Part shown: piece after piece, positions 10,228-62,034 of the stretch | Position numbering within the stretch: the first letter of the stretch is position 1 | Layout: the number at the start of each line of letters is the position of its first letter | Origin: Eledone cirrhosa | Lineage: Eukaryota | NCBI GenBank assembly: GCA_964016885.1 | Contig: OZ024741.1 | Span: forward strand, 221,526,001 to 221,590,000 | Direction: 5' to 3' | DNA length: 64,000 nucleotides | Program-made: the position numbers and the translations under genes | Notes under the pieces: generated by a model | Told to the model about the DNA's origin: nothing | Databases searched by the model: none | What the model saw: the letters and a program-made list of their open reading frames with translations, nothing else

Positions 10228-10580
10228 TAGTGCGTGAACGACCGAGCATGGATGTGTTGAGAGAGAAACTGTGTCTGAGAGGGATAAATTGTAATGTGCG
10301 GGAGAGGAGACTGTGATGGTTTGGACATGTGATGCACATGGAGGATGACTGCTGGGTAAAGAAGTGCCAAGAAATGCCAGTTGAAGGAAATGCAGTAGAG
10401 GAAGACCACAAAAAACATGGGCAGAGGTGGTGAGAGCAGACCTCAGATCGCTGAAGCTCACGGTGGAGATGACGAAGGACCATGACAAGTGGAGAGATGC
10501 TGTGCTGAATAGGACCCATCCCACCCTTGCAAGCAGGGAAAAGCGGATGTAAAATGATGATGATGATAATGATGATGATA
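10228..10580 (+). mobile_element. RTE LINE 3' fragment (second family)
   Basis: Degenerate WFGHV..MEDDCWVKKC...KTWAEVV; matches 60845-61190; (GAT)n tail. Confidence 0.85.
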
Positions 10581-10730
10581 TATACATGCATTTATATATA
10601 TATAATTGGTGTGGGATGCTTAAAACATCCGTATGCAGTAGGTCATTTGAGCACTTGATGCTCTTACAGAGCAGAGTATAATATCACATAAGAAACGGAG
10701 AATCAGTGGTGTGACGAATTAAAATTTATT

Positions 10731-10827
10731 AGACATATTACAATTGTTTCTCTGGTGACCAGCTTGAGGCATGATCGATGCAATGATCGAACCTGACTCT
10801 GAAATCGCAAGATCCTCAGATACGTCT
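10731..10827 (-). ncRNA. Type I hammerhead ribozyme (predicted)
   Basis: Reverse complement: agacgtat CTGAGGA TCTTGCGA...TCACCAGA GAAA CAATTG TA atatgtct; 8-bp stem I, canonical core, palindromic stem III. Confidence 0.75.
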
Positions 10828-10867
10828 CAATCTTTCGAATCTTTGGAAACTCTGCTTCGAACGATTG

Positions 10868-10964
10868 AGACATATCTGAGGATCTTGCGATTTCAGAGTC
10901 AGGTTCGATCATTGCATCGATTGTGCCTCAAGCTGGCTGCCAGAGAAATGATTGTAATATGTCT
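10868..10964 (+). ncRNA. Type I hammerhead ribozyme (predicted)
   Basis: agacatat CTGAGGA TCTTGC...GCCAGA GAAA TGATTG TA atatgtct. Confidence 0.7.
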
Positions 10965-11007
10965 AATAAATTTTAATTCGTTGCACCACTGATTCTCCGT
11001 TTCTTAT

Positions 11008-11054
<47 letters not shown>

Positions 11055-11334
11055 GCAAGCCAATGATTGAACTTCTACACAGTAGCTCAACCAGCCAGGT
11101 CTATTAGAAATGGTAAAACTAGAAAGGGCTAAAGAATAACTGTTTACATGGATCATAGGTGTTGTTCTATGTAGTGTCTGTAGCTAGCATCATACAGAAT
11201 TAATATAGGAAGATTGTTAATGTTACATAAACAGGTCTCAAGAGTTACATTGGATCTTAACTCATTGTCTCAGATTTTGAACAAAATATGTTGGAGGTTT
11301 GATATCTTAAATTTAGGAGCACAAAACAAACAAA

Positions 11335-18128: not shown

Positions 18129-18135
18129 TACATAT

Positions 18136-18237
18136 AATTGGTGTGGGATGCTTAAAGCGTCCGTAAGCCAGAAAAACGATTGTAATATGTATAATAAATT
18201 TTATTCGTCGCAACACCGATTCTCCATTTCTTATGGG

Positions 18238-18240
<3 letters not shown>
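18136..18240 (-). mobile_element. Family B element, internally deleted
   Basis: Tail start tggtgtgggatgctt joined directly to the arm end gccagaaaaacgattgtaatatg. Confidence 0.65.
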
Positions 18241-18744: not shown

Positions 18745-19140
18745 TCTCATAGAGCAGAGTATGATATCACAGAAAAAAGAGAATCAATGTTGCGACAAAT
18801 GGAATTTATTGGACATATTACAATCGTTTCTCTGGCGACCAGCTCGAGGCACGATCGATGTGATGATCGAACCTGACTCTGAAAATCACAAGGTCCTCAG
18901 ATGCGTCTTGATTCTACGAAGCAGATTTTCCTATGTCGATATACTTCGCCTGTCGATGTAAAAGGACATAGAAAAATCTGCTTCGTAGAATCAAGACGCA
19001 TCTGAGGACCTTGCGATTTTCAGAGTCAGGTTCGATCATCACATCGATCATGCCTCGAGCTGGTCGCCAGAGAAACGATTGTAATATGTCCAATAAATTC
19101 CATTCGTCGCAACATTGATTCTCTTTTTTTCTGTGATATA
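18745..19140 (-). mobile_element. Fold-back element, family B, with hammerheads at 18812-18907 (-) and 18995-19090 (+)
   Basis: Arms ~18762-18937 and ~18966-19140; gacgcat CTGAGGA CCTTGCGA...TCGCCAGA GAAA CGATTG TA atatgtc. Confidence 0.8.
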
Positions 19141-23756: not shown

Positions 23757-24193
23757 ATTAACAAATGGAAACTATATATATAAAACCATATTTATTTCAT
23801 TATACATATTTCAAGGACACCAAGTTAAATTATGGTGTGCTTTCATCAAACAAAATATAATATAGATCAGTTTTATAAATAAATATTGACATACCCTTAA
23901 AAAATGCAACCATTACTGTTGGAAGCTCCCGGAGCTTCCAACAGTAATGGTTGCATTTTTTAAGGGTATGTCAATATTTATTTATAAAACTGATCTATAT
24001 TATATTTTGTTTGATGAAAGCACACCATAATTTAACTTGGTGTCCTTGAAATATGTATAATGAAATAAATATGGTTTTATAAATATAGTTTCCATTTGTT
24101 AATATCATATGTTTACTCCAAATACTTGTTGAGTGCTTTATATCAGTTATAAAAATATTTGCTTGTTGTATCCCAACAATTTAAATAGAACTT

Positions 24194-24231: not shown

Positions 24232-25402
24232 AAAGTTTTATTTAAAATTGTTGGGTTACAACAAGTAAATATTTTATAACTGATATAAAGCACTCGACAA
24301 GTTTTGGAGTAGATATACGATATTAAACAAATGGAAACTATATTTATAAAACCATATTTATTTCATTATACATATTTCGGGGATACCATATTAAAAATAT
24401 GGCATGCCTTCTTTTTATAAATAATTTTGACGTACCATAAATATTGAGCAACCTTTATGTAAGAAGCTGGTTTGGTAGTGAGATGTTTATAAATATTTAG
24501 TGTTAAGCACAGTTAAAAAGAAAGACGGAGAAAAAGAAGAAATGTATGTAAAGAAAAACAGAGAGAAATAGAGAGAGATAGGGGAGAGAGAAATAGTGAG
24601 GAGGTGAAAAAAGAGAGCAGCTGAGGCAACAGATGAATAATAATAATTCATCATACAAATTGAGAGATTTAGGAGGGAGGGAGTACTGTAATTATTTAGT
24701 TATAGTGTTAAGGACAGTTGGGGAGGAGACGGGGAGAAATAAAAAATGAAAAGAAAACAGAGAGAGAGAAAGATAGAGGTGGGGGGAAAAAAGAGGTAGA
24801 CCAAATAATAGTTTCTCTCTTATTTCTCTCTTATTTCTCTCTTATTTCTCTCCTATTTCTCTCACCTCCCCATATATAATTATTATTATTTGGTCTACCT
24901 CTTTTTTCCCCCCACCTCTATCTTTCTCTCTCTCTGTTTTCTCTTCATTTTTTATTTTTTATTTCTCTCCGTCTCCTCCCCAACTGTCCTTAACACTATA
25001 ACTAAATAATTACAGTACTCCCTCCTAAATCTCTCAATTTGTATGATGAATTATTATTATTCATCTGTTGCCTCAGCTGCTCTCTTTTTTCACCTCCTCA
25101 CTATTTCTCTCTCCCCTCTCTCTCTATTTCTCTCTGTTTTTCTTTACATACATTTCTTCTTTTTCTCCGTCTTTCTTTTTAACTGTGCTTAACACTAAAT
25201 ATTTATAAACATCTCACTACCAAACCAGCTTCTTACATAAAGGTTGCTCAATATTTATGGTACGTCAAAATTATTTATAAAACTGTTTATATATTGTATT
25301 TTATCTGAAGAAGGCATGCCATATTTTTAATATGGTATCCCCGAAATATGTATAATGAAATAAATATGGTTTTATAAATATAGTTTCCATTTGTTTAATA
25401 TC

Positions 25403-29384: not shown

Positions 29385-29679
29385 TAAGGAAAATAGATGA
29401 AATCGAAAACGCAACTGGAGTCTTTTTTTTAATATATTTATTTGGTTCCTTTACTGGTTTCACAGTTCTTGTGCTTTTCAAAAGTAGAATTGAGATGGAG
29501 GGTTTGTGGTTCTCTACTTTTGAAAAGCACAAGAACTGCGAAACCGGTAAAAAAGGAACCAAATAAATATATTTAAAAAATAAAAGACTCCAGTTGCATT
29601 TTCGATTTTATCTTTTTTCCTTATACTTTCACTCATGCAGGACACCTCGTTTTTTTTTTCATTTAAAAAAAAACCTCAC

Positions 29680-49514: not shown

Positions 49515-52500
49515 TGGATTTAATATGGTTGACTGGGTTTCAATATGATTGGCTGGGTCTCAATATAGTCAACTGGGTCTTAATATGGTTGTCTAGGTCT
49601 TAATATTGTTGGGTCATAATATGGTTGACAGGGTCTTAATATGGTTGACTAGGTCTTAATAGCGTTGGGTCTTAATATGGTTGACTAGGTCAAAATAGGG
49701 TTGGGTCTTAATATGGTTGAGAGGGTCTTAATAAGATTGACTAGGTCTTAATATGGTTGAGAGGGTCTTAATGTGATTGACAAGGTCTTAATGGGGTTGG
49801 TTGGGTCTTAATGTGGATGAGTGAGTCTTTATGGTTGACTAAGTCTTAAAATGGTGGACAGGGTCGTAATATGGTTGACTAGGTCTTAATATGGTTGGTT
49901 GGTCTTAATATGGTTGACTAGGTCTTAATAGGGTTGAGTCTTAATAAGGTTGGGTCTGAATATGGTTGGGTTTTAATATGGTTCTCTGGGTCTTAAGATG
50001 GTTGACTGGGTCTTAATATGGTTGGGTCTCAATATGGTTGAGTGAATCTTAATATGGTTGACTAAGTCTTAATATGGTTGACAGGGTCGTAATATGGTTG
50101 ACTGGGTCTTAATATGGTTCGTTGGGTCTTAATATGGTTGACTAGGTCTTAATATGGTTGGTTGGGTGTTAATCTGGTTGACTGGGTCTTAATCTGGTTC
50201 GTTGGGTCTTAATATGGTTGACTAGGTCTTAATATGGTTGGTTGGGTGTTAATCTGGTTGACTGGGTCTTAATCTGGTTCGCTGGGTCTTAATATGGTTT
50301 GCTGGGTCTTAATATGGTTGGTTGGGTCTTAATATGGTTGGCTGGGTCTTAATATAGTTGTTTGGGTCTTAATATGGATGACCGAATCTTAATATGGTTG
50401 GCTGGGTCTTAATATGGTTGACTGGATCTTAATATGGTTGATTGGGTCTTAATATGGTTCACCTCCTCTTAATATGGTTGGTTGGGTCTTAATATCGTTG
50501 ACTGGGTCATAATATGGTTGGTTGGGTCTTAATATGGTTGACTGGGTATTAATATAGTTGGTTGGGTTTTAATATTGTTGACTGGATATTAATATGGTTG
50601 GTTGGGTCTTAATATGGTTGACTACGTCTTAATATGGTTGACTAGGTCTTAATATGATTGACTAGATCTTAATATGGTTGTGTCTTAATATGGTTGGTTG
50701 GGTCTTAATATGGTTGACTACGTCTTAATATGGTTGACTAGGTCTTAATATGATTGACTAGATCTTAATATGGTTGTGTCTTAATATGGTTGGCTGGGTC
50801 TTAATATGGTTGAATGGGTTTTAATATGGTTGACTAGGTCTTAATATGGTTGGTTGGGACTTAATATGGTTGGGTTTTCATAGGGTTGACTGAGTCTTAA
50901 TATGGTTGGGTCTTAATATGGTTGACTGGGTCTTAATATGGTTAGCTGGGTCTTAATATGGTGGACTGGGTCTTAATATGGTTGACTAGGTATTAATATG
51001 GTTGACTGCATTGAAATATGGTTGACTGGGGCTTAATATGGTTCGTTAGGTCTTAATATAGTTGGCTGTGTCTTCATATGGGTGACAAGGTCTTAACGTG
51101 GTTGGCTGGGTCTTAATATGGTTGACTAGGTCTTAATATGGTTGGTTGGGTCTTAATATGATTGACTGGGTCTTAATATGATTGACTGGGTCTTAATATG
51201 GTTGGGTCTTAATATGGTTGGCTGGATCTTAATATGGTTGAATGGGTCTCAATAAGGTTGACTAGGTTTTAATATGGTTGGGTGGGCCTTAATATGGTTG
51301 TGTCTTCATATGGTTTACTCAGTGGTTGGGTCTTAATATGGTTGGGTCTTAATATACTTGGATCGTAATATGGTTGGCTGGGTCTTAAAGGGTTTAGGTC
51401 TTAATATGGCTGACTGGGTCTTAATATGGTTGAGTAAGTCTTAATATGGTTGGGTCATAATATGGTTAGCTTGGTCTTAATATGGGTGACTAGGTCTTAA
51501 TAGGGTTGGGTCTTAATATGGTTGGCTGGGTCCTAATATGGTTGACTGGGTCATAATATGGTTGGGTGGGTCTGAATATGGTTGGGTGGGTCTTAATATG
51601 GTTGGGTCTAAATATGGTTGACTGGGTCTTAATATGGTTGGTTGAATCTTAATATGGTTTACTAGGCCTTAATCTGACTGAGTCTTAATCTGGTTGACTG
51701 GGTCTTAATATGGTTGACTGGGTCGTAATATGGTTGACTGGGTCTTAATATGGTTGACTAGGTATTAATATGGTTGGGTGTGTCTTAATATGGTTGACTG
51801 GGTCTTAATATGGTTGGGTCTTAATATGGTTGGTTGCATCTTGATATGGTTTACTAGGCCTTAATCTGACTGAGTCTTAATCTGGTTGACTGGGTCTTAA
51901 TATGGTTGACTGGGTCGTAATATGGTTGAATGGGTCTTAATATGGTTGACTAGGACTTCATATGGTTGGTTGGGTCTTAATATAGTTGACTGGGTTGAAA
52001 TATGGTTGACAGCGTCTTAATATGGTTGACTAGATCTTAATATGGTTGGTTCGGTCTTAATATGGTTGTGTCTTAATATGGTTGAGTGATTCTTAATATG
52101 GTTGACTACAACTTAATATCGTCAACTGTGTACTAATATGGTTGACTAGGTCTTAATATGGTTGACTGGGTCTTAATAGGGATGGTTGGCTCTTAATATG
52201 GTTGGGTGGGTCTGAATACGGTTGGGTGGGTCTTAATATGGTTGGGTATTAATATGGTTGACTGGGTCTTAATAGGGATGGTTGTCTCTTAATATGGTTG
52301 AGTGGGTCTGAATACGGTTGGGAGGGTCTTAATATGGTTGGGTCTTAATATGGTTGACTGGGTCTTAATATGGTTGACTAGGTCTTAATATGGCTGACTG
52401 GGCCTTAATATGGTTGAGTAGGTCTTAATATGGTTGACAAGGTCTTAATATGGTTGACTGGGTTGAAATAATGTTCGTTGGGTCTTAATATGTTTGGGTC

Positions 52501-55500
52501 TTAATATGGTTAGCTGTGTCTTGATATGGGTGACTATGTCTTAATAGGGTTGGGTTTTCATATGGTTGGCTGGGTCTTAATATGGTCGACTAGGTCTTAA
52601 TATGGTTGAGTGAGTCTTAATATTGTTGACTACGTTTTAATATCTTCGACTGGGTACTAATATGGTTGGGTCTTAATATGGTTGGCTTGGTCTTAATGTG
52701 TTTGGGTTTTAATATGGTTGACTGGGTCTAAATATGGTTGGGTGGGTCTTAATATGGTTGGGTGGGTCATAATATGGTTGGGCCTTGATATGGTTTACTG
52801 GGTCTTTATATGGTTGACTGTGTCTTAATATGGTTCACTTGGTCTTAATATGGGTGGTTGGGACTTAATATGGTTGGGTCTTAATATGGTTGACTGAGTC
52901 TTAATATGGTTGACTAGGTCTTAATAGGGTTAGGTCTTAATATGGCTGACTGGGACTTAATATGTTTGAGTGAGTCTTAATATGGTTGACTAGGTCTTAA
53001 TATGGTTGACTGGGTTAAAATATGGTTGACTGAGTCTTAATATGGTTCGTTGGGTCTTAATATGGTTGGCTGTGTCTTAATATGGGTGACTCCGTCTTAG
53101 TAAGGTTGGGTCTTAATATGGTTAGGTCTTAATATGGTTGACTGGGTCTGAAAAGGTTGAGTGAGTCTTAATATGGTTGACTACGAATTAATATCATCGA
53201 CTGGGTACCACTATGGTTGACTAGGTCTTAATATGGTTGACTGGGTCTTAATATGTTTGGGTTTTAATATGGTTGACTGGGTCTTAATAGGGATGGTTGG
53301 GTCTTAATATGGTTGGGTGGGTCTGAATATGGTTGGGTGGGTATTAATATGGTTGGGTCTTAATATGGTTGACTGGGTCTTAATATGGTTGACTAGGTCT
53401 TAATATGGTTGGTTGGCTCTTAATATGGTTGATTGGGTCTTAATATGTTTGGGTCTTCATATGGTTGACTGGGTCTCAATATGGTTGGTTGGTTCTTAAT
53501 ATGGTTGTGTGGGTCTGAATATGGTTCACTGGGTCTTAATATGGTTGACTGGTTCTTAGTAGGGTTAAATGGGTCTTCATATGGTTTACTAGGTCTTAAT
53601 CTGGTTGGGTGGGTCTTAATATGGTTGGCTAGGTCATAATATGTTTGAATAGGTCTTGACTGGGTCTTAATATTGTTTGGTCTTAATATGGTTGGGTGGG
53701 TCTTAATATGGTTGACTCGGTCAAAATGTGATTGACTGGGTCTTCATTTGATTGACTGGGTCTTAATATGGTTGGGTTTTAATATGGTTGACTGCGTATT
53801 AATATGGCTGGGTCGTAATATGGTTGACTGGGTCTTAATATGGTTGACTAGGTCTTAATATGGTTGACTGGGTCTTAATATGGTTCACTAGGTCTTAATA
53901 TGGTTGGGTCTTATTATGGTTGGCTGGGTCTTAATATGGCTGGGTCTTGATATGTTTGACTAAGTCTCAATATGGTTGTTTGGGTCTTAATATGGTTGGT
54001 TGGTTGGATCTTAATATGGTTGGTTGTGTCTTAATATCGTTGACTGGGTCTTAATATAGTGTGGTATTAATATGGTTGGCCGGGTCTTATTATAGTTGGT
54101 TCGGTCTTAATATGGTTGGGTCTCAAAATGGTTGGCTGGGTCTTAATATGGTTTGGTCTTAATATGGTTTTGACTAGGTCTTAATAGGGTTGGGTCTTAA
54201 TATGGTTGGCTCTTAATATGTTTGACTGGGTCTTAATATGGTTGACTGTGTCTTAATATGGTTGACTAGGTCTTAATATGGTTTGGTCTTAATATGGTTT
54301 TGAGTAGGTCTTAATAGGGTTGGGTCTTAATATAGTCGGGTCTTAATATGGTTGACTGGGTCTTAATATGGTTGACTATGTCTTAATATGGTTGGTTGGG
54401 TCTTAATATGTTTGGGTCATATTATGGGTGACTGGGTCTGAATATGGTAGACTGGATCTTAATATTTTGGCTCTTAATATGGTTGGCTGGACCTTAATAT
54501 GTATGGATCTTAATATGGTTGGCTAATTCTTAATACGGTTGACTGCGTCGTACCATGGTTGGCTGGGTTTTAATATGGTTGGGTCGTAATATCGTTGACT
54601 GGGTCTTAATATGATTGACTGGGTATAAATATGTTTGGTTGGGTCTTAATATGGTTGGGTTTTAATATGGTTGACTGGGTCTTAATATGGTTGGCTGGGT
54701 CTTCATAAGGTTGGGTTTTAATATGGTTGACTTGGTCTTAATATAGTTGGCTGTGTCTTTATATGGTTGGTTGGTTCTTTATATAATTGGTTGGGTCTTC
54801 ATATTGTTCACTAGGTCTTAATATGGTTGGCTGGGTCTTAATATGGTTGGTTGGGTCTTAATATGTTTGACTAGGTCTTAATATATTTAACTAGGTCTTA
54901 ATATGTTTGACTAGGTCTTAATATGGTTGGGTCTTAATATGGTTGGTTGAGTCTTAATATGGTTGTATGGGTCTTAAGATGGCTGACTGGGTCTTAATAT
55001 GGTTGGTTGGGTCTTAATATGTTTGGTTGGGTCTTAATATATTTGACTCTGTCTTGATATGCTTGGTTGTATCTTAATATGTTTGATTGGGTCTTAATAT
55101 GTTTGGCTGAGTCTTAATATGTTTGACTGGATCTTAATATGGTTGATTGGGTCTTAATATGGTTCACCTCGTCTTAATATCGTTGACTTCGTCTTAATAT
55201 GTTTGGTTGGGTCTTAATATGGTTGACTGGGTCTTAATATGGTTGGTTGGGTCTTAATATGGTTGACTGGGTATTAATATAGTTGGTTGGGTCTTCATAT
55301 GGTTCACTAGGGCCTAATATGGTTGGCTGGGTCTTAATATGGTTGGTTGGGTCTTAATATGGTTGAGTAGGTCTTAATATGTTTGACTAAGTCTTAATAT
55401 GGTTGGTTGGGTCTTAATATTGTTGACTGGGTCATAATGTGATTGACGAGGTCTTAATATGGTTGACTGGGTCTTAATATGGTTGGGTCTTAATACGGTT

Positions 55501-58500
55501 GAATGGGTCTTAATATTGTTAGCTGGGTCTTAATATGGTTGGCTGGGTCTTAAAATGGTTGACTAGGTCTTAATATGGTTGACTGGGTCTTAATATGTTT
55601 GACTAGGTCTTAATATGGTTGGTTGGGTCTTAATATTGTTGACTGGGTCATAATGTGATTGACGATGTCTTAATATGGTTGACTGGGTCTTAATATGGTT
55701 GGGTCTTAATACGGTTGAATGGGTCTTAATATTGTTAGCTGGGTCTTAATATGGTTGGCTGAGTCTTAAAATGGTTGACTAGGTCTTAATATGGTTGACT
55801 GGGTCTTAATATGGTTGACTAGGTCTTAATATGGTTGGATCTTAATATGGTTGGGTCTTAATATGGTTGGCTGGGTCGTAATATGGTTGGCTATGTCTTA
55901 ATATGGTTAGGTCTTAATATGGTTGACTGGGTCCCAATTTGATTGACTAGGTCTTAATATGGTTGACTAGGTCTTAATATGGTTGGCTGGGTCTTAATAT
56001 GGTTGAATGGGTCTTAATATGGTTGACTAGGTATTAATATGGTTGGTTGTATCTTAATATGCTTGGGTCTTCATATGGTTGACTGAGTCTTAATATGGTT
56101 GGGTCTTAATATTGTTGACTGCATCTTAATATGGTTGACATGGTCTTAATATGGTTGCCTACGTCTTCATATGGTTGGTTGGGTCTCAATATGGTTGACT
56201 GTGTCTTAATATGGTTGACAAGGTCTTAATATGGTTGGTTGGGTCTTAATATGGTTGGTTGGGGTCTTAATAGGGTTGGTTGGGTCTTAATATGGTTGGG
56301 TGGGTCGTAATATGGTTGGGTTTTAATATGGTTGACTGGGTCTTAATATGGTTGACTGGGTCTTAATATAGTTGACTGGGTTTTCATATGGTTGACTGGT
56401 TCTTAATATGGTTGGTTGGGCTCTTAATAGGGTTGGTTGGCTCTTAATATGGTTGGGTGGGTTTGAATATGGTTGGGTGGATCGTAATATGGTTGGGTCT
56501 TAATATGATTGACTGGGTCTTAATATGGTTGGCTGGGTCTTAATATAGTTGACTGTGTCTTAATATGGTTGGTTGGTTGGTTCGATCTTAATATGATTGG
56601 TTGGGTCTTAATATGGTCTACTAGGCCTTAGTATCGTTAGTTGGGTCTTAATATGGTTGGTTGTGTCTTAATATGTTTGACTGGGTCTTAATATAGTGGT
56701 GTCTTAATATGGTTGGCTGGGTCTTATTATAGTTGGTTGGGTCTTAATATGATTGAGTCTTAATATGGTTGGGTCTCAATATGGTTGGTTGGGACTTAAT
56801 GTGGTTTGGTCTTAATATGGTTTTGACTAGGTCTTAATAGGCTTGGATCTTAATATGGTTGGCTCTTAATATGGTTGACTGTGTCTTAATATGGTTGAAT
56901 AGGTCTTAATATGATTGACTGGGTCTTAATACGGTTGACTGTGTCTTAATATGGTTGACTAGGTCTTAATATGGTTGACTAGGTCTTAATATAGTTGGGT
57001 CTTAATATGGTTGACTGGGTCTTAATATAGTTGACTATATCTTAATATGATTGGTTGGGTCTTAATATGTTTGGGTCATAATATGGTTGACTGGGTCTTA
57101 ATATGGTTGGCTGGGTCTTAATATGGTTGGCTCGTTCTTAATATGTATGGGTCTTAATATGGTTGGCTAGTTCTTAATATGGTTGACTGCTCTTAACATG
57201 GTTGGTTGGGTCTTAACATGGTTGGGTCTTAATATGGTTGAGTGGGTCTTAATATGGTTGGTTGGGTCTTAAAACGTTTGGTTGGGTCTTAATATGGTTG
57301 ACCTGGTCTTAATATGGTTGGCTGGGTCTTCATATGGTTGGGTCTTAATATGGTTGACTTGGTCTTAATACGGTTGACTGTGTCTTTATATGGTTGGTTG
57401 GTTCTTTATATAGTTGGTTGGGTCTTCATATTGTTCACTAGGGCCTAATATGGTTGGCTTGGTCTTAATATGGTTGGTTGGGTCTTAATATGGTTGAGTA
57501 GGTCTTAATATGTTTGACTAGGTCTTAATATGGTTGGGTCTTAATATGGTTGGTTGAGTCTTAATATGGTTGCCTGGGTCTTAATATGGTTGACTGGGTC
57601 TTAATCTGGTTGGTTGGGTCTTAATATGTTTGGTTGGGTCTTAATATATTTGACTGTGTCTTAATATGGTTGGTTGGGTCTTAATATGTTTGGTTGTGTC
57701 TTTATATATTTGACTGTGTCTTGATATGGTTGGTTCGGTCTTAATATGTTTGGTTGGGTCTTAATATGGTTGGCTCGTTCTTAATATGTATGGGTCTTAA
57801 TATGGTTGGCTAGTTCTTAATATGGTTGACTGCTCTTAACATGGTTGGTTGGGTCTTAACATGGTTGGGTCTTAATATGGTTGAGTGGGTCTTAATATGG
57901 TTGGTTGGGTCTTAAAATGTTTGGTTGGGTCTTAATAAGGTTGACCTGGTCTTAATGTGGTTGGCTGGGTCTTCATATGTTTGGGTCTTAATATGGTTGA
58001 CTTGGTCTTAATATGGTTGACTGTGTCTTTATATGGTTGGTTGGTTCTTTATATAGTTGGTTGCGTCTTCATATTGTTCACCAGGGCCTAATATGGTTGG
58101 CTGGGTCTTAATATGGTTGGTTGCGTCTTAATATGGTTGAGTAGTTCTTAATATGTTTGACTAGGTCTTAATATGGTTGGGTCTTAATATGGTTGGTTGA
58201 GTCTTAATATGGTTGCCTGGGTCTTAATATGGTTGACTGGGTCTTAATATGGTCGACTGGGTCTTAATATGATTGGTTGGGTCTTAATATGGTTGACTAG
58301 GTCTTATTATGGTTGACTATGTCTTAATATGTTTGACTATGTCTTAATATGGTTGGGTCTTAATATGGTTGGTTGAGTCTTAATATGGTTGCCTGGGTCT
58401 TAATATGGTTGACTGGGTCTTAATCTGGTTGGTTGGGTCTTAATATGTTTGGTTGGGTCTTAATATATTTGACTGTGTCTTAATATGGTTGGTTGGGTCT

Positions 58501-59432
58501 TAATATGTTTGGTTGTGTCTTTATATATTTGACTGTGTCTTGATATGGTTGGTTGGGTCTTAATATGTTTGGTTGGGTCTTAATATGGTTGGCTCGTTCT
58601 TAATATGTATGGGTCTTAATATGGTTGGCTAGTTCTTAATATGGTTGACTGCTCTTAACATGGTTGGTTGGGTCTTAACATGGTTGGGTCTTAATATGGT
58701 TGAGTGGGTCTTAATATGGTTGGTTGGGTCTTAAAATGTTTGGTTGGGTCTTAATATGGTTGACCTGGTCTTAATATGGTTGGCTGGGTCTTCATATGTT
58801 TGGGTCTTAATATGGTTGACTTGGTCTTAATATGGTTGACTGTGTCTTTATATGGTTGGTTGGTTCTTTATATAGTTGGTTGCGTCTTCATATTGTTCAC
58901 CAGGGCCTAATATGGTTGGCTGGGTCTTAATATGGTTGGTTGCATCTTAATATGGTTGAGTAGTTCTTAATATGTTTGACTAGGTCTTAATATGGTTGGG
59001 TCTTAATATGGTTGGTTGAGTCTTAATATGGTTGCCTGGGTCTTAATATGGTTGACTGTGTCGTAATATGGTTGACTGGGTCTTAATATGGTTGACTAGG
59101 TCTTAATATGGTTGGGTGGGTCTTAATATGGTTGGGTCTTAATATGGTTGGTTGAGTCTTAATATGGTTGCCTTGGTCTTAATATGGTTGACTGGGTCTT
59201 AATCTGGTTGGTTGGGTCTTAATATGTTTGGTTGGGTCTTAATATATTTGACTGTGTCTTAATATGGTTGGTTGGGTCTTAATATGTTTGGTTGTGTCTT
59301 TATATATTTGACTGTGTCTTGATATGGTTGGTTGGGTCTTAATATGTTTGGTTGGGTCTTAATATCTTTGGCTGAGTCTTAATATGGTTGACTCGGTCTT
59401 TATATGGATTGTTGGGTCTATATTTGGTTGGC
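49515..59432. repeat. ~10-kb 20-bp (with 16-bp variant) satellite
   Basis: ggtcttaatatggttgactg repeated roughly 500 times. Confidence 0.97.
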
Positions 59433-60323
59433 TGTTGTTTGTTGTTTATTTATTATTTGTTGTTTAACCCTATGTAGGTTTGCAACTGGTAGATAGTATC
59501 AGCAATAGAAAAGACCAACAGAAATATTTTTCTTTGGTTCAATTTGATGAGTTAAACCCCACTCGGTAAGTGAAGGGGGTCTGAAATCTTGCTGATGAAT
59601 TCCCCTTAGTTTTAACTGAGCAGAGATATGATCAAAGACATTCCAGATGTGATTACACCACCTATATTCTTTGTGCAAGTAATCTCTGTTCTTTTCTAAA
59701 ACAGAACATGCTTTGAGGGAGTCTTCACTGCTATTTCTCACACGTCAAGCACCCACATTGATAATTTTCCTTAATTGCTATATTGTTTTCACAGACTACT
59801 GAAAATTTTTAGAGACAGTTGTATAGTTTTCTTAATTCTTAAATGATTTTAGAAGTAACTGTATAATTTTGAAAATTGTTCTACAATTTTAGAAATAGTT
59901 TTAGAATCTTTTTATATGGTGGTACAAATGGTTGTATAATTTTTTGTATTGTTAAATAATTTTATAAGTGGCTATAAAATTTTAGAAATGGTTGAATAAA
60001 TGTTTATATAGTTAAATAATTTTAGAGACAGTTGTAAATTCTTTAAATAGTTAAATATTTTTAGAAGTAACTATATAATTGTAAAATGGTTGTAAATATT
60101 TTTATATGGTTAAATAGTTTTAGAATTAACTATATAATTTTAGAAGATATGATCAATGAACTGGCAGTTATGAATTCAAGTCTTAAAATAACAACCCATG
60201 TTGCTGACATTTAGTTTTTTAACCAAGGACAAGGTACATAACTCTGCATACCTCAGTCTGCCTGATTAACAGAATTGCTTCTTTCATTCCTTTAGTGTTG
60301 AAGGGACAGCAGTAAGAAGAGCA

Positions 60324-60764: not shown

Positions 60765-61192
60765 GGTATACAGGTGTAGAAGTAAGCAGAGTGGAACTGG
60801 AGAGAAATGAGGCAAGCATGCTCCGTTGGATGTGCAATGTCAAAGTGCGTGAACGACGCAGCATGAATGTGTCGAGAGAGAAACTGTGTCTGAGAAGGAT
60901 AGAATGTAGTGTGCAAGAGAGGAGACTGAGGTGGTATGGACATGTGATGCGCATGGAGGATAACCGATGGGTGAAGAAGTGCCAGGAAATGCCAGTTGAA
61001 GAAAGATGTGGTAGAGGTAGACCACGAAAAACATGGGCGGAGGTGGTGAGAACAGACCTCAGATCGCTGAAGCTCACGGTGGAGATGACAAAGGACCGTG
61101 ACAAGTGGAGAGATGCTGTGCTGAATAGGACCCGTCCCACCCTTGCAAGCAGGGAAAAGCGGACATAAAATAATGATGATGATGATGATGAT
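60765..61192 (+). mobile_element. RTE LINE 3' fragment
   Basis: LERNEASMLRWMC...RRLRWYGHVMRM...GRGRPRKTW; (GAT)n tail. Confidence 0.88.
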
Positions 61193-61337
61193 AGACATAT
61201 TACAATCATTTCTCTGGTGACCAGCTCGAGGTACGATCGATGAGATGATCGAACCTGATATTATACTCTGCTCTGTAAGAGCATCGAATGCTCAAACGCG
61301 ATACTGCATATGGATGCTTTAAGCATCCCACACCAAA
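61192..61337 (+). mobile_element. Family B remnant (partial inverted arm + tail)
   Basis: agacatattacaatc...gaacctga joined to the tail ...gcatcccacaccaa. Confidence 0.65.
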
Positions 61338-62034
61338 TATCATCATCATCATCAGCATCATCACCGTTTTACGTCCGTTCTTCCATGCTAGCATGGGTTA
61401 GATGGGTTGTCCTGTTGTGGACAGTGTCTGGTTGGCTGACCTAAATACATATATATATATATATATATCATCACATATATATATATATCATCACACATAT
61501 ATATTCATCATCATCATCATATTAATATTTTACTCCACTTCCCCCGTCAGCAAGGATTGCATGGGTCAACAGAGACCAAATCAGTACTGAAATGGTACTA
61601 CTGACCTTCCAGTCTGGCCCAGAGATGGGGAGAGGTCTGCACCTCGTGTATGGGGATATGTTCTATCAAGTGCATAGGGAGGTTATCATGTCTTTGACAC
61701 AACTAAGGGGTCCTCCCCACCCTTTGTTTGGCACACTTTCTACAGCTAGATGCTCTTCTTAACACCAACCACTTTACAGAGTGTACTGGGTGCATTTATT
61801 GTGTAGATCACCAACACTAGGGAGGTTGTCATGTACTTGACATGACTAAAGGGTCCTCCCAACCCTTTGTTTGGTAAGCTTTCTATGGTTGGATGCCCTT
61901 CCTATCACCAACAACTTTACTGCATGTATGGGTGCATTTATCATGTAAATTACCAATATTAGAAAAGATGTCGCATTGTGTCATGACTCAACCCCTTCCT
62001 TCCTCCTATTTTTATAGGCATCATTTCTACAGCT

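Follow-up and report, generated by a model that had tools for sequence, protein, structure and literature searches.

The question raised by this locus is why two hammerhead ribozyme motifs should lie opposed to one another on the two DNA strands, and whether such an arrangement is a regulatory device or a by-product of the way in which a mobile element inserts. The window, by which we mean the whole 64,000-nucleotide stretch of Eledone cirrhosa DNA that was analysed, contains two type I hammerhead motifs on opposite strands, each with a 62-nt stem II domain, inside a 410-bp head-to-head insertion (10603–11012) in (TA)n. The preliminary description placed two opposed hammerheads at 10731–10964, and both motifs are found there; a hammerhead descriptor gave 5 matches in the window compared with 0–1 per shuffle in 30 dinucleotide shuffles, and with an 8-bp stem I required it gave 4 matches in the window and none in 30 such shuffles. 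The opposed arms were thus correctly described, but the insertion is larger than was supposed, extending over 10603–11012, and its minus arm carries an 80-nt tail. We give a probability of roughly 80% to the reading that two ends of a Hydra-clade Penelope-like element (PLE), each with a type I hammerhead motif, lie here head to head as a dead pair, and that their inversion likely stems from integration and not from a role as regulator. Direct support exists for the parentage, for two fixed 3' ends with one of each per pair, for a pile-up of 5' ends and for conservation of the fold between subfamilies. The features to which the text refers are as follows.

10603–11012, unstranded: the complete insertion, a head-to-head pair of 5'-short pLTR ends from a Hydra-clade Penelope-like element (from the repeat search, arm comparison and parents)
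10603–10839, minus strand: tail-bearing arm, about −101 to +136 relative to the predicted cut
10603–10682, minus strand: 80-nt PLE tail between the fixed 3' ends +56 and +136; 5' UTR in the full-length parents
10731–10827, minus strand: type I hammerhead motif of the minus arm; predicted cut after 10739; stem III ACAAUUGU
10842–11012, plus strand: short-ended arm, −115 to +56, beginning at the family's 5'-end pile-up (predicted transcription start −116)
10868–10964, plus strand: type I hammerhead motif of the plus arm, with cleavage predicted after 10956 and a C15.2-to-U change that weakens stem III
10868–10875, plus strand: 5' strand of stem I, coinciding with a DPE-like motif at +28 from the predicted start (putative function); AGACGTAT in the family, with one CpG change here
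10883–10944, plus strand: 62-nt stem II domain, made up of an outer 8-bp helix, a 3-bp helix, an invariant internal loop (GAGUC opposite YGAGCU) and a 10-bp hairpin
10987–10993, plus strand: invariant CTGAY, then a pyrimidine-rich AG-free stretch; branch-point-like candidate
11013–11050, unstranded: (TA)n right flank (the left flank is 10593–10602)
10580–10590, plus strand: candidate 11-bp target duplication seen in the sequence, with its repeat at 11047–11057 outside the (TA)n runs; possibly a chance match in low-complexity DNA
18745–19137, unstranded: second head-to-head insertion, sister subfamily S2
18135–18239, unstranded: short head-to-head fragment of the same family, without a whole ribozyme
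61192–61339, unstranded: short head-to-head fragment of the same family, without a whole ribozyme

The fold ascribed to each arm, a type I hammerhead with an 8-bp stem I, CUGAGGA, a long stem II and GAAA, is borne out on both strands. In the plus arm, 10868–10875 pairs with 10957–10964 to form the 8 pairs of stem I, enclosing CUGAGGA (10876–10882), the stem II domain, GAAA (10945–10948) and stem III (10948–10955), and cleavage is predicted after A10956; in the minus arm the core runs from 10819 and stem I ends at 10731. The order is the same in both, namely 8-bp stem I, CUGAGGA, 62-nt stem II domain, GAAA, a 2-bp stem III with a 4-nt loop, GUA and stem I. The two arms differ at 11 of 151 compared bases, 9 of these at CpG sites. 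Relative to the predicted cut the plus arm starts at −115 and the minus arm at −101, giving the plus arm 14 extra 5' bases, and the 80-nt tail of the minus arm is absent from the plus arm.

The copy at 18.8 kb had been described as a diverged one that keeps the fold. It is indeed an opposed pair of the same family, but it belongs to a sister and younger subfamily (its copies are 97–98% alike) and in both arms has C-A mismatches in stem I and at pair 10.1–11.1, with which it was missed by the hammerhead descriptor. Two rare changes are common to its arms, one of them breaking stem I, and its tail arm ends about 20 nt into the tail, not at +136. Elsewhere in the window, the motifs at 25305 (+), 41449 (+) and 41311 (−) are type I hammerheads of different families, whose stem II domains measure 31 nt and 26 nt; the 26-nt family also forms an opposed pair. 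Further near-perfect hairpins with sub-threshold miRNA matches are present at 23894–23966, 24744–24951 and 29431–29573, and are probably inverted stumps of other repeats. The 10 kb at 50000–60000 have a GC skew of about +0.5 and an AT skew of about −0.35, and are probably a tandem repeat tract.

The host genome is 3.0 Gb in size and rich in (TA)n. A genome search with the plus arm returned 2276 candidates, of which 40 were scored, and all 54 matches were 91–100% identical. In longer copies about 2.2 kb of non-coding DNA separates the arm from a GIY-YIG frame that lies upstream of it and which as a query returned 40,785 candidates, related families included. Two loci, L095 and L096, are near-full-length parents with the order pLTR, tail, ORF, 3' UTR and pLTR, in which the pLTRs are direct, not opposed, and the ORFs are broken by stops and frameshifts. 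In one ORF between the pLTRs their protein carries an RWK-type N-terminal motif in the form RMRWRA (R for K), SDKT (DKT replacing DKG), the RT motifs, CxCx5C and, C-terminal to RT, a GIY-YIG domain (GVVY..YIG) without CCHH and with CxxC-E and N..CxH. The CxCX5C linker, the CCHH-free GIY-YIG and the CxxC/CxH around E/N occur together in L095, L096, L098, L100, L104 and L062 among 10 long loci scanned. The Pfam GIY-YIG match to the parents is weak (E 0.01–0.014), a 123-aa EN fragment has no Pfam match, and a homologue search with the EN region among longer proteins, weak evidence in itself, found nothing. TA or CA repeats follow most arm ends across 54 loci, in keeping with the (TA)n insertion of Hydra-clade PLEs. 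The likely ATG lies about 50 nt past the tail and the hammerhead about 190 nt upstream of it, which places the ribozyme in the 5' UTR.

By these protein motifs, with RT compared by eye with published alignments, the insertion consists of the pLTR ends of a Hydra-clade Penelope-like retrotransposon, the motifs matching the Hydra-clade criteria in section 11 of Craig et al. 2021 (PMC8557442). The hallmarks of the protein, the (TA)n targeting, the canonical type I hammerhead in the pLTR, and the inverted 5'-short copy with a one-sided tail are all as described there for Hydra-clade PLEs, which include Hydra-1_Obim and Penelope-13_HM, and the latter likewise has a hammerhead on each strand. A Hydra family is listed for Octopus bimaculoides (Hydra-1_Obim) in the PMC8557442 supplement; its N-terminal, DKT and RT motifs are alike by eye, yet in the same visual comparison differ enough that the present element is a new Hydra family. 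It also departs from the clade as outlined in PMC8557442 in its tail (80 nt versus the usual 30–40), its 3' UTR of about 2 kb and its length of about 5 kb, compared with less than 3 kb.

Three other identities were considered and set aside. The Neptune clade does not fit, the CX2-5CxxC linker and CCHH being absent and the protein motifs agreeing with Hydra instead; a MITE or DNA transposon is contradicted by arm lengths that vary freely, by two ends that differ and by the lack of constant-length terminal inverted repeats. Non-LTR retrozymes likewise contain a type I hammerhead and are PLE-related, but they consist of tandem 150–300-bp repeats, whereas copies in the 54 loci are dispersed, single or head-to-head units, not tandem head-to-tail, and are tied to an ORF-bearing parent. 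At L095:3-1325 (+), a different PLE frame (the end of RT and GIY-YIG, with a CxxxxCxxC linker) adjoins the Hydra copy. In two other organisms, three contigs each match parts of the element at 90–95%, and the family may therefore be common to several species.

The positions at which copies end give information on the RNA that was copied. Among 27 tail-anchored copies, including the window minus arm, 12 end between −6 and −102, 14 between −107 and −117 and one at −359; thus 14 of the 15 copies extending as far as −107 go no further than −117 (P 3e-17 if truncation were constant). No 5' start falls within 5 nt of the cut site in these 27 copies, although such copies would have scored fully, which argues that the templates were uncut or re-ligated. 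The same pile-up is seen in S2 (6/13), S3 (9/13) and S4 (6/13), in sets limited by the query end, despite different upstream sequence; S5 and S6 are without good long references for 5' ends. Position −116 is the A of CATTT, and AGACGT is present at +28 from it (background 3.6e-4 per site), a match to Inr and DPE that was noticed after the pile-up. The Inr, DPE (except RGACGTGY) and branch-point patterns applied here are general consensus forms. The DPE-like motif lies at +28 in S1, S4 and S5 and at +27 in S2 and S3; neither S6 nor the other hammerhead families have it. Overlap of a DPE with stem I as a general trait was accordingly rejected, since it does not hold in the other hammerhead families of the same loci. 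The arrangement resembles the TATA-less internal promoter of Drosophila virilis Penelope, with an Inr and the DPE RGACGTGY inside the pLTR (Schostak et al. 2008, PMC2377424); here the promoter is deduced from end positions and motif spacing, and the DPE-like motif is the 5' strand of stem I. The short arms would then be run-off copies of the RNA 5' end. Longer elements, with a 5' pLTR extending beyond −116, need a tandem or circular template, and cleavage and ligation could act there, as proposed in PMC4209133.

A possible intron overlaps the same region. At 10987–11012, and in L007, L197, L173, L147, L151, L169, L164, L126 and L129, covering all six subfamilies, CTGAY or CTAAC is followed by a pyrimidine tract that is AG-free for 37–41 nt, resembling a 3' splice site near +75, with acceptors that are mostly non-YAG. 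A G/GT donor-like site lies at −54 inside stem II in five subfamilies, and putative splicing from −54 to about +75 would delete half the ribozyme as well as the +56 RT start. No processed (spliced) copies were seen; there were 2 same-strand skips among 187 loci with matches, neither from the −54 donor.

Pair architecture was tabulated for 54 S1 loci, 28 of them selected with the arm and 26 with the stretch that follows the cut, leaving out the window locus and three duplicates. These are the best-scoring 14–30 of 40 scored from 1757–2800 candidates per search, and the counts are thus not genome-wide and favour little-decayed copies. An inverted partner was present at 34 of the 54 loci and absent from 20, and the length of the partner arm was arbitrary. 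In 31 of the 34 pairs a short arm ending at +56 was combined with a tail arm ending at +136; one pair was tail with tail, none was short with short, and two were tiny fold-backs. This excess over a 50:50 draw gives p values of 3e-5 and 1e-4. In 15 of these 31 pairs the 5' end of the short arm lies beyond that of the tail arm by more than 10 nt, and in 3 the arms do not overlap at all; these non-nested arms, the non-overlapping pairs among them, point to two primings. Partner arms also have rare variants in common: in 18 pairs, 56 of 163 non-CpG variants were common to both arms compared with 756 of 10456 for unrelated copies, an enrichment of about 5-fold, which argues that one source gave rise to both.

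A mechanism can be proposed from these patterns. An internal promoter of the Inr and DPE type in the pLTR would start an RNA about 116 nt before the hammerhead cut site. The element protein would nick both strands of the (TA)n target, and each nicked end would prime RT at its own position within the RNA, one at +136 and the other at +56. In the simplest form of this, twin priming, both would act on one uncleaved RNA, and strands would be displaced wherever the two cDNA copies overlap. Each cDNA may stop early or run off the RNA 5' end, and joining of the cDNA ends would leave a head-to-head pair with one tail. In the RNA of the active element the ribozyme may cut weakly and in dependence on a dimer or a protein, probably in order to process unit-length RNA or make it circular, and no activity is predicted for it in the stumps. 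The one-of-each rule, the common variants and the non-overlapping pairs would all follow if one RNA was primed twice.

The nearest experimental parallel is the Poseidon element PAc of Anolis (Frangieh et al. 2024, PMC11167929), where two internal RT starts bound the tail, matching +56 and +136 here, and where in vitro, as proposed here, AT-rich targets are used, both strands are cleaved and extended, and uncleaved RNA serves as template. PAc belongs to a different clade and its hammerhead overlaps the start codon, unlike the upstream position found here; its RT start has no strand bias in vitro, whereas the genomic pairs described here use one site per side.

The strongest alternative replaces the single RNA with two, joined by the stem III palindrome or by a protein dimer and giving one cDNA each; on this model −116 would mark either where a short non-autonomous master ends or where RT halts at the base of the extended stem I, and would not be a promoter start. 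The full self-complementarity of stem III in 105 of 121 long-stem matches, with a majority duplex of −5.8 kcal/mol, is compatible with such a complex, as are the predicted dimer of the PLE protein (PMC11167929) and the extended stem I pairings that appear near the pile-up in constrained folds. Two equal RNAs should, however, also yield short with short and tail with tail pairs, of which 1 in 32 was seen, unless the complex is asymmetric, and the recurrence of the pile-up in S1–S4 despite differing upstream sequence also speaks against this model. The two-RNA model is possible but rather unlikely; the DNA would fit either one RNA or two, and twin priming on one uncleaved RNA is preferred as the simplest.

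The conserved features of the fold bear on what the ribozyme does. Core positions C3–A9, G12–A15.1, U16.1 and H17 of the type I hammerhead are present in both arms and invariant in six subfamilies, and the stem II domain is 58–63 nt long across the family, compared with 26 nt or less in the 26 Hydra rows that we counted in File S2 of PMC8557442, in which two non-Hydra plant entries have a stem II of about 50 nt. The internal tcgat/atcga hairpin of the preliminary description does exist as an inner hairpin, but that register is 80.9% paired, as against 85.9% over 10 pairs for the conserved one, GAUC/GAUC closed by AGG/CCU, in which GG/CC and UC/GA are never broken. There is no terminal loop at the usual distance for a contact between loop II and stem I; that role could fall to the invariant internal loop or to an AAUAAA loop next to stem I. 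A kink-turn reading of the invariant internal loop was rejected, inspection by eye giving no fit to the kink-turn consensus. Stem III is only 2 bp long. In the minus copy it had been called palindromic in the manner of dimer-acting PLE hammerheads, and it is self-complementary; the perfect palindrome ACAATTGT, though, is a CpG-decayed form of the family majority ACGATTGT (66/121 long-stem matches), which is self-complementary with two G-U pairs. Full self-complementarity is also found in 63 of 78 other matches, and a palindromic stem III is a known sign of dimer action (PMC3088659, PMC7761336, PMC4209133). The stem III dimer of the plus arm is predicted to be weak (−0.8 versus −6.4 kcal/mol), and in either window arm the hammerhead fold is predicted to lie about 5 kcal/mol above the best fold.

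The PLE hammerheads of Cervera and De la Peña 2014 (PMC4209133) are of the same type I, with a weak palindromic helix III and an irregular helix II base, and include opposed hammerheads in Schistosoma lying 100–700 bp apart on opposite strands, as here; they have a helix II of 4–8 bp with a simple loop in place of the three-helix extension with its invariant internal loop. With E values up to 10 allowed, the plus arm had no match in Rfam, for which the length of stem II is the likely reason; nor was there a hammerhead family among 150 of 204 Rfam matches listed for the whole window, where the miRNA matches are below gathering scores and reflect hairpins. The descriptor found 199 distinct matches in 231 sources, with stem II classes of 12–15, 26–36, 49–63 and 116 nt, nearly all with a palindromic stem III; stem II in the other hammerhead families of the same loci is mostly 12–53 nt, placing this family at the long end of the range. 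In L125–L144 (S6), the outer stem II is near-identical to that of Hydra-1_Obim and encloses about 42 nt versus 8, suggesting that the extension grew inside loop II.

Alignment of genomic copies suggests that this fold was under selection. Six subfamilies were compared, with 14–28 loci each and majority sequences 54–92% alike, and the core columns were invariant in 12 of 12 cases compared with 51 of 145 others (Fisher p 9e-6), while N7 varies. Within a subfamily (116 copies) the core changes at 28/1166 positions (2.4%), non-CpG flanks at 486/13144 (3.7%) and CpG sites at 246/2560 (9.6%); the copies being dead, core and flanks differ only slightly at this level, and the comparison belongs between subfamilies. 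The preliminary description would have been undermined by a core no more conserved than its flanks, a difference that is thus small within a subfamily and clear between subfamilies. In 22 real copies, being the three closest to each subfamily majority and the four window arms, 86.8% of cells were paired and 22 cells, at 8 pairs, had changed on both sides; none of 500 shuffles reached 86.8% pairing or 22 double changes, 11 of 500 reached 8 pairs, and slid controls paired at 25–40%. RNAalifold recovered stems I, II and III from the six majority sequences, and only the stem II domain, not stems I and III, from the 22 real copies. The long stem II is thus retained, with covarying stems and an invariant core between subfamilies, as the preliminary description had anticipated for aligned genomic copies. 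The distant subfamily S6 contributes most of the double changes, and the shuffle control takes no account of how the copies are related; the covariation is therefore supportive rather than strong. Judged from these alignments, the fold was likely selected in active elements.

Another reading is that the motif is a hammerhead-like scaffold without catalytic activity, retained because it binds protein or serves as a promoter. Pair 10.1–11.1 is mismatched in 54 of 121 long-stem matches, as it is in several published Hydra motifs (PMC8557442 File S2), and this, together with the 2-bp stem III, the poor predicted monomer fold and the lack of an end pile-up at the cut site, would suit a dead scaffold, as would two published in vitro findings, the weak cleavage by PLE hammerheads (PMC4209133) and insertion that does not need them (PMC11167929). 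Against this, the 12 core positions that are invariant while N7 varies include the cleavage triplet, and in PLE hammerheads A9 is usually followed by a base that is extra or unpaired (PMC4209133 and PMC8557442 File S2). We regard a dead scaffold as improbable.

A bolder extension of the twin-priming reading can be entertained tentatively, although it is unlikely as a whole. The family may represent a structurally new class of PLE hammerhead, its loop II having expanded into a conserved three-helix domain that would dock on stem I or bind the element protein and so gate cleavage. The same 250 nt would serve as promoter (with stem I as DPE), as a 5'-UTR intron and as two RT starts, one per strand, and the stumps, in their thousands, would record obligate twin priming on uncleaved RNA.

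The inverted arm could instead have arisen by fold-back self-priming, in which a single cDNA or antisense copy serves as its own template, as proposed by Arkhipova et al. 2013 (PMC3846280). Short fold-back pieces do occur at some junctions (L007, L210 and L212), and the private variants common to partner arms would fit this model as well. A fold-back copy cannot exceed its template, however, and each arm has sequence missing from the other in the 15 of 31 non-nested pairs, with no overlap in 3, while in the window copy each arm similarly holds sequence that the other lacks; fold-back is therefore quite improbable as the general origin.

The preliminary description held that a transcript, whichever strand it comes from, carries one ribozyme and also an antisense inhibitor of it. 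For the whole hairpin the folding energy is −265 kcal/mol (z = −38, with 0 of 100 shuffles as good), and a read-through RNA, with the antisense arm first, would in this predicted fold trap the ribozyme core in a near-perfect hairpin, as a consequence of the layout and not a selected function. Because the arms point away from each other, RNA begun at the predicted start of the element itself would not include the antisense arm. At 10683–11012, four CpG sites have changed from C to T on the plus strand in both arms, which keeps G-U pairing in the plus transcript and counsels some caution; this TG/CA pattern is found at 7 of 255 site pairs in all, 4 of the 7 being in the window locus. That the pair was selected as such a device is highly improbable, for although the read-through hairpin and these four changes would suit it, partners are missing from 20 of 54 loci, both ribozymes are whole in only 6 of 34 pairs, decay falls mainly on CpG sites, the TG/CA pattern is largely confined to one locus, and the full-length parents have direct pLTRs.

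The opposed layout is ordinary and already known for Penelope-like elements: inverted 5'-short copies with a one-sided tail are standard (PMC8557442, PMC3846280), and opposed hammerheads from inverted pLTRs have been published (PMC4209133, and Penelope-13_HM in File S2 of PMC8557442). For the strict pairing of short and tail arms, for this family and for a 60-nt stem II in Hydra elements, no paper was found in the literature searched, which mostly lay outside subscription papers and Repbase/Dfam; the long-helix variant could appear in the supplements of PMC4209133, and the accessible portions of bioRxiv 10.64898/2026.07.22.740005 and PMC13282606 do not mention hammerheads or Hydra. What is less ordinary is the conserved long stem II and the integration signature, not the opposed arrangement.

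PMC8557442 leaves open by what route the head-to-head PLE insertions with a tail on one side arise and whether the ribozyme has to cut first; the strict pairing of short and tail arms, the non-nested arms and the 5'-end pile-up yield sharp predictions for an in vitro system. A conserved long stem II that is missed by Rfam means that standard descriptors likely undercount PLE hammerheads, and the invariant internal loop is a candidate tertiary or protein contact. For the host, a transcript across such an insertion would form about 150 bp of dsRNA, which may be a substrate for editing or Dicer.
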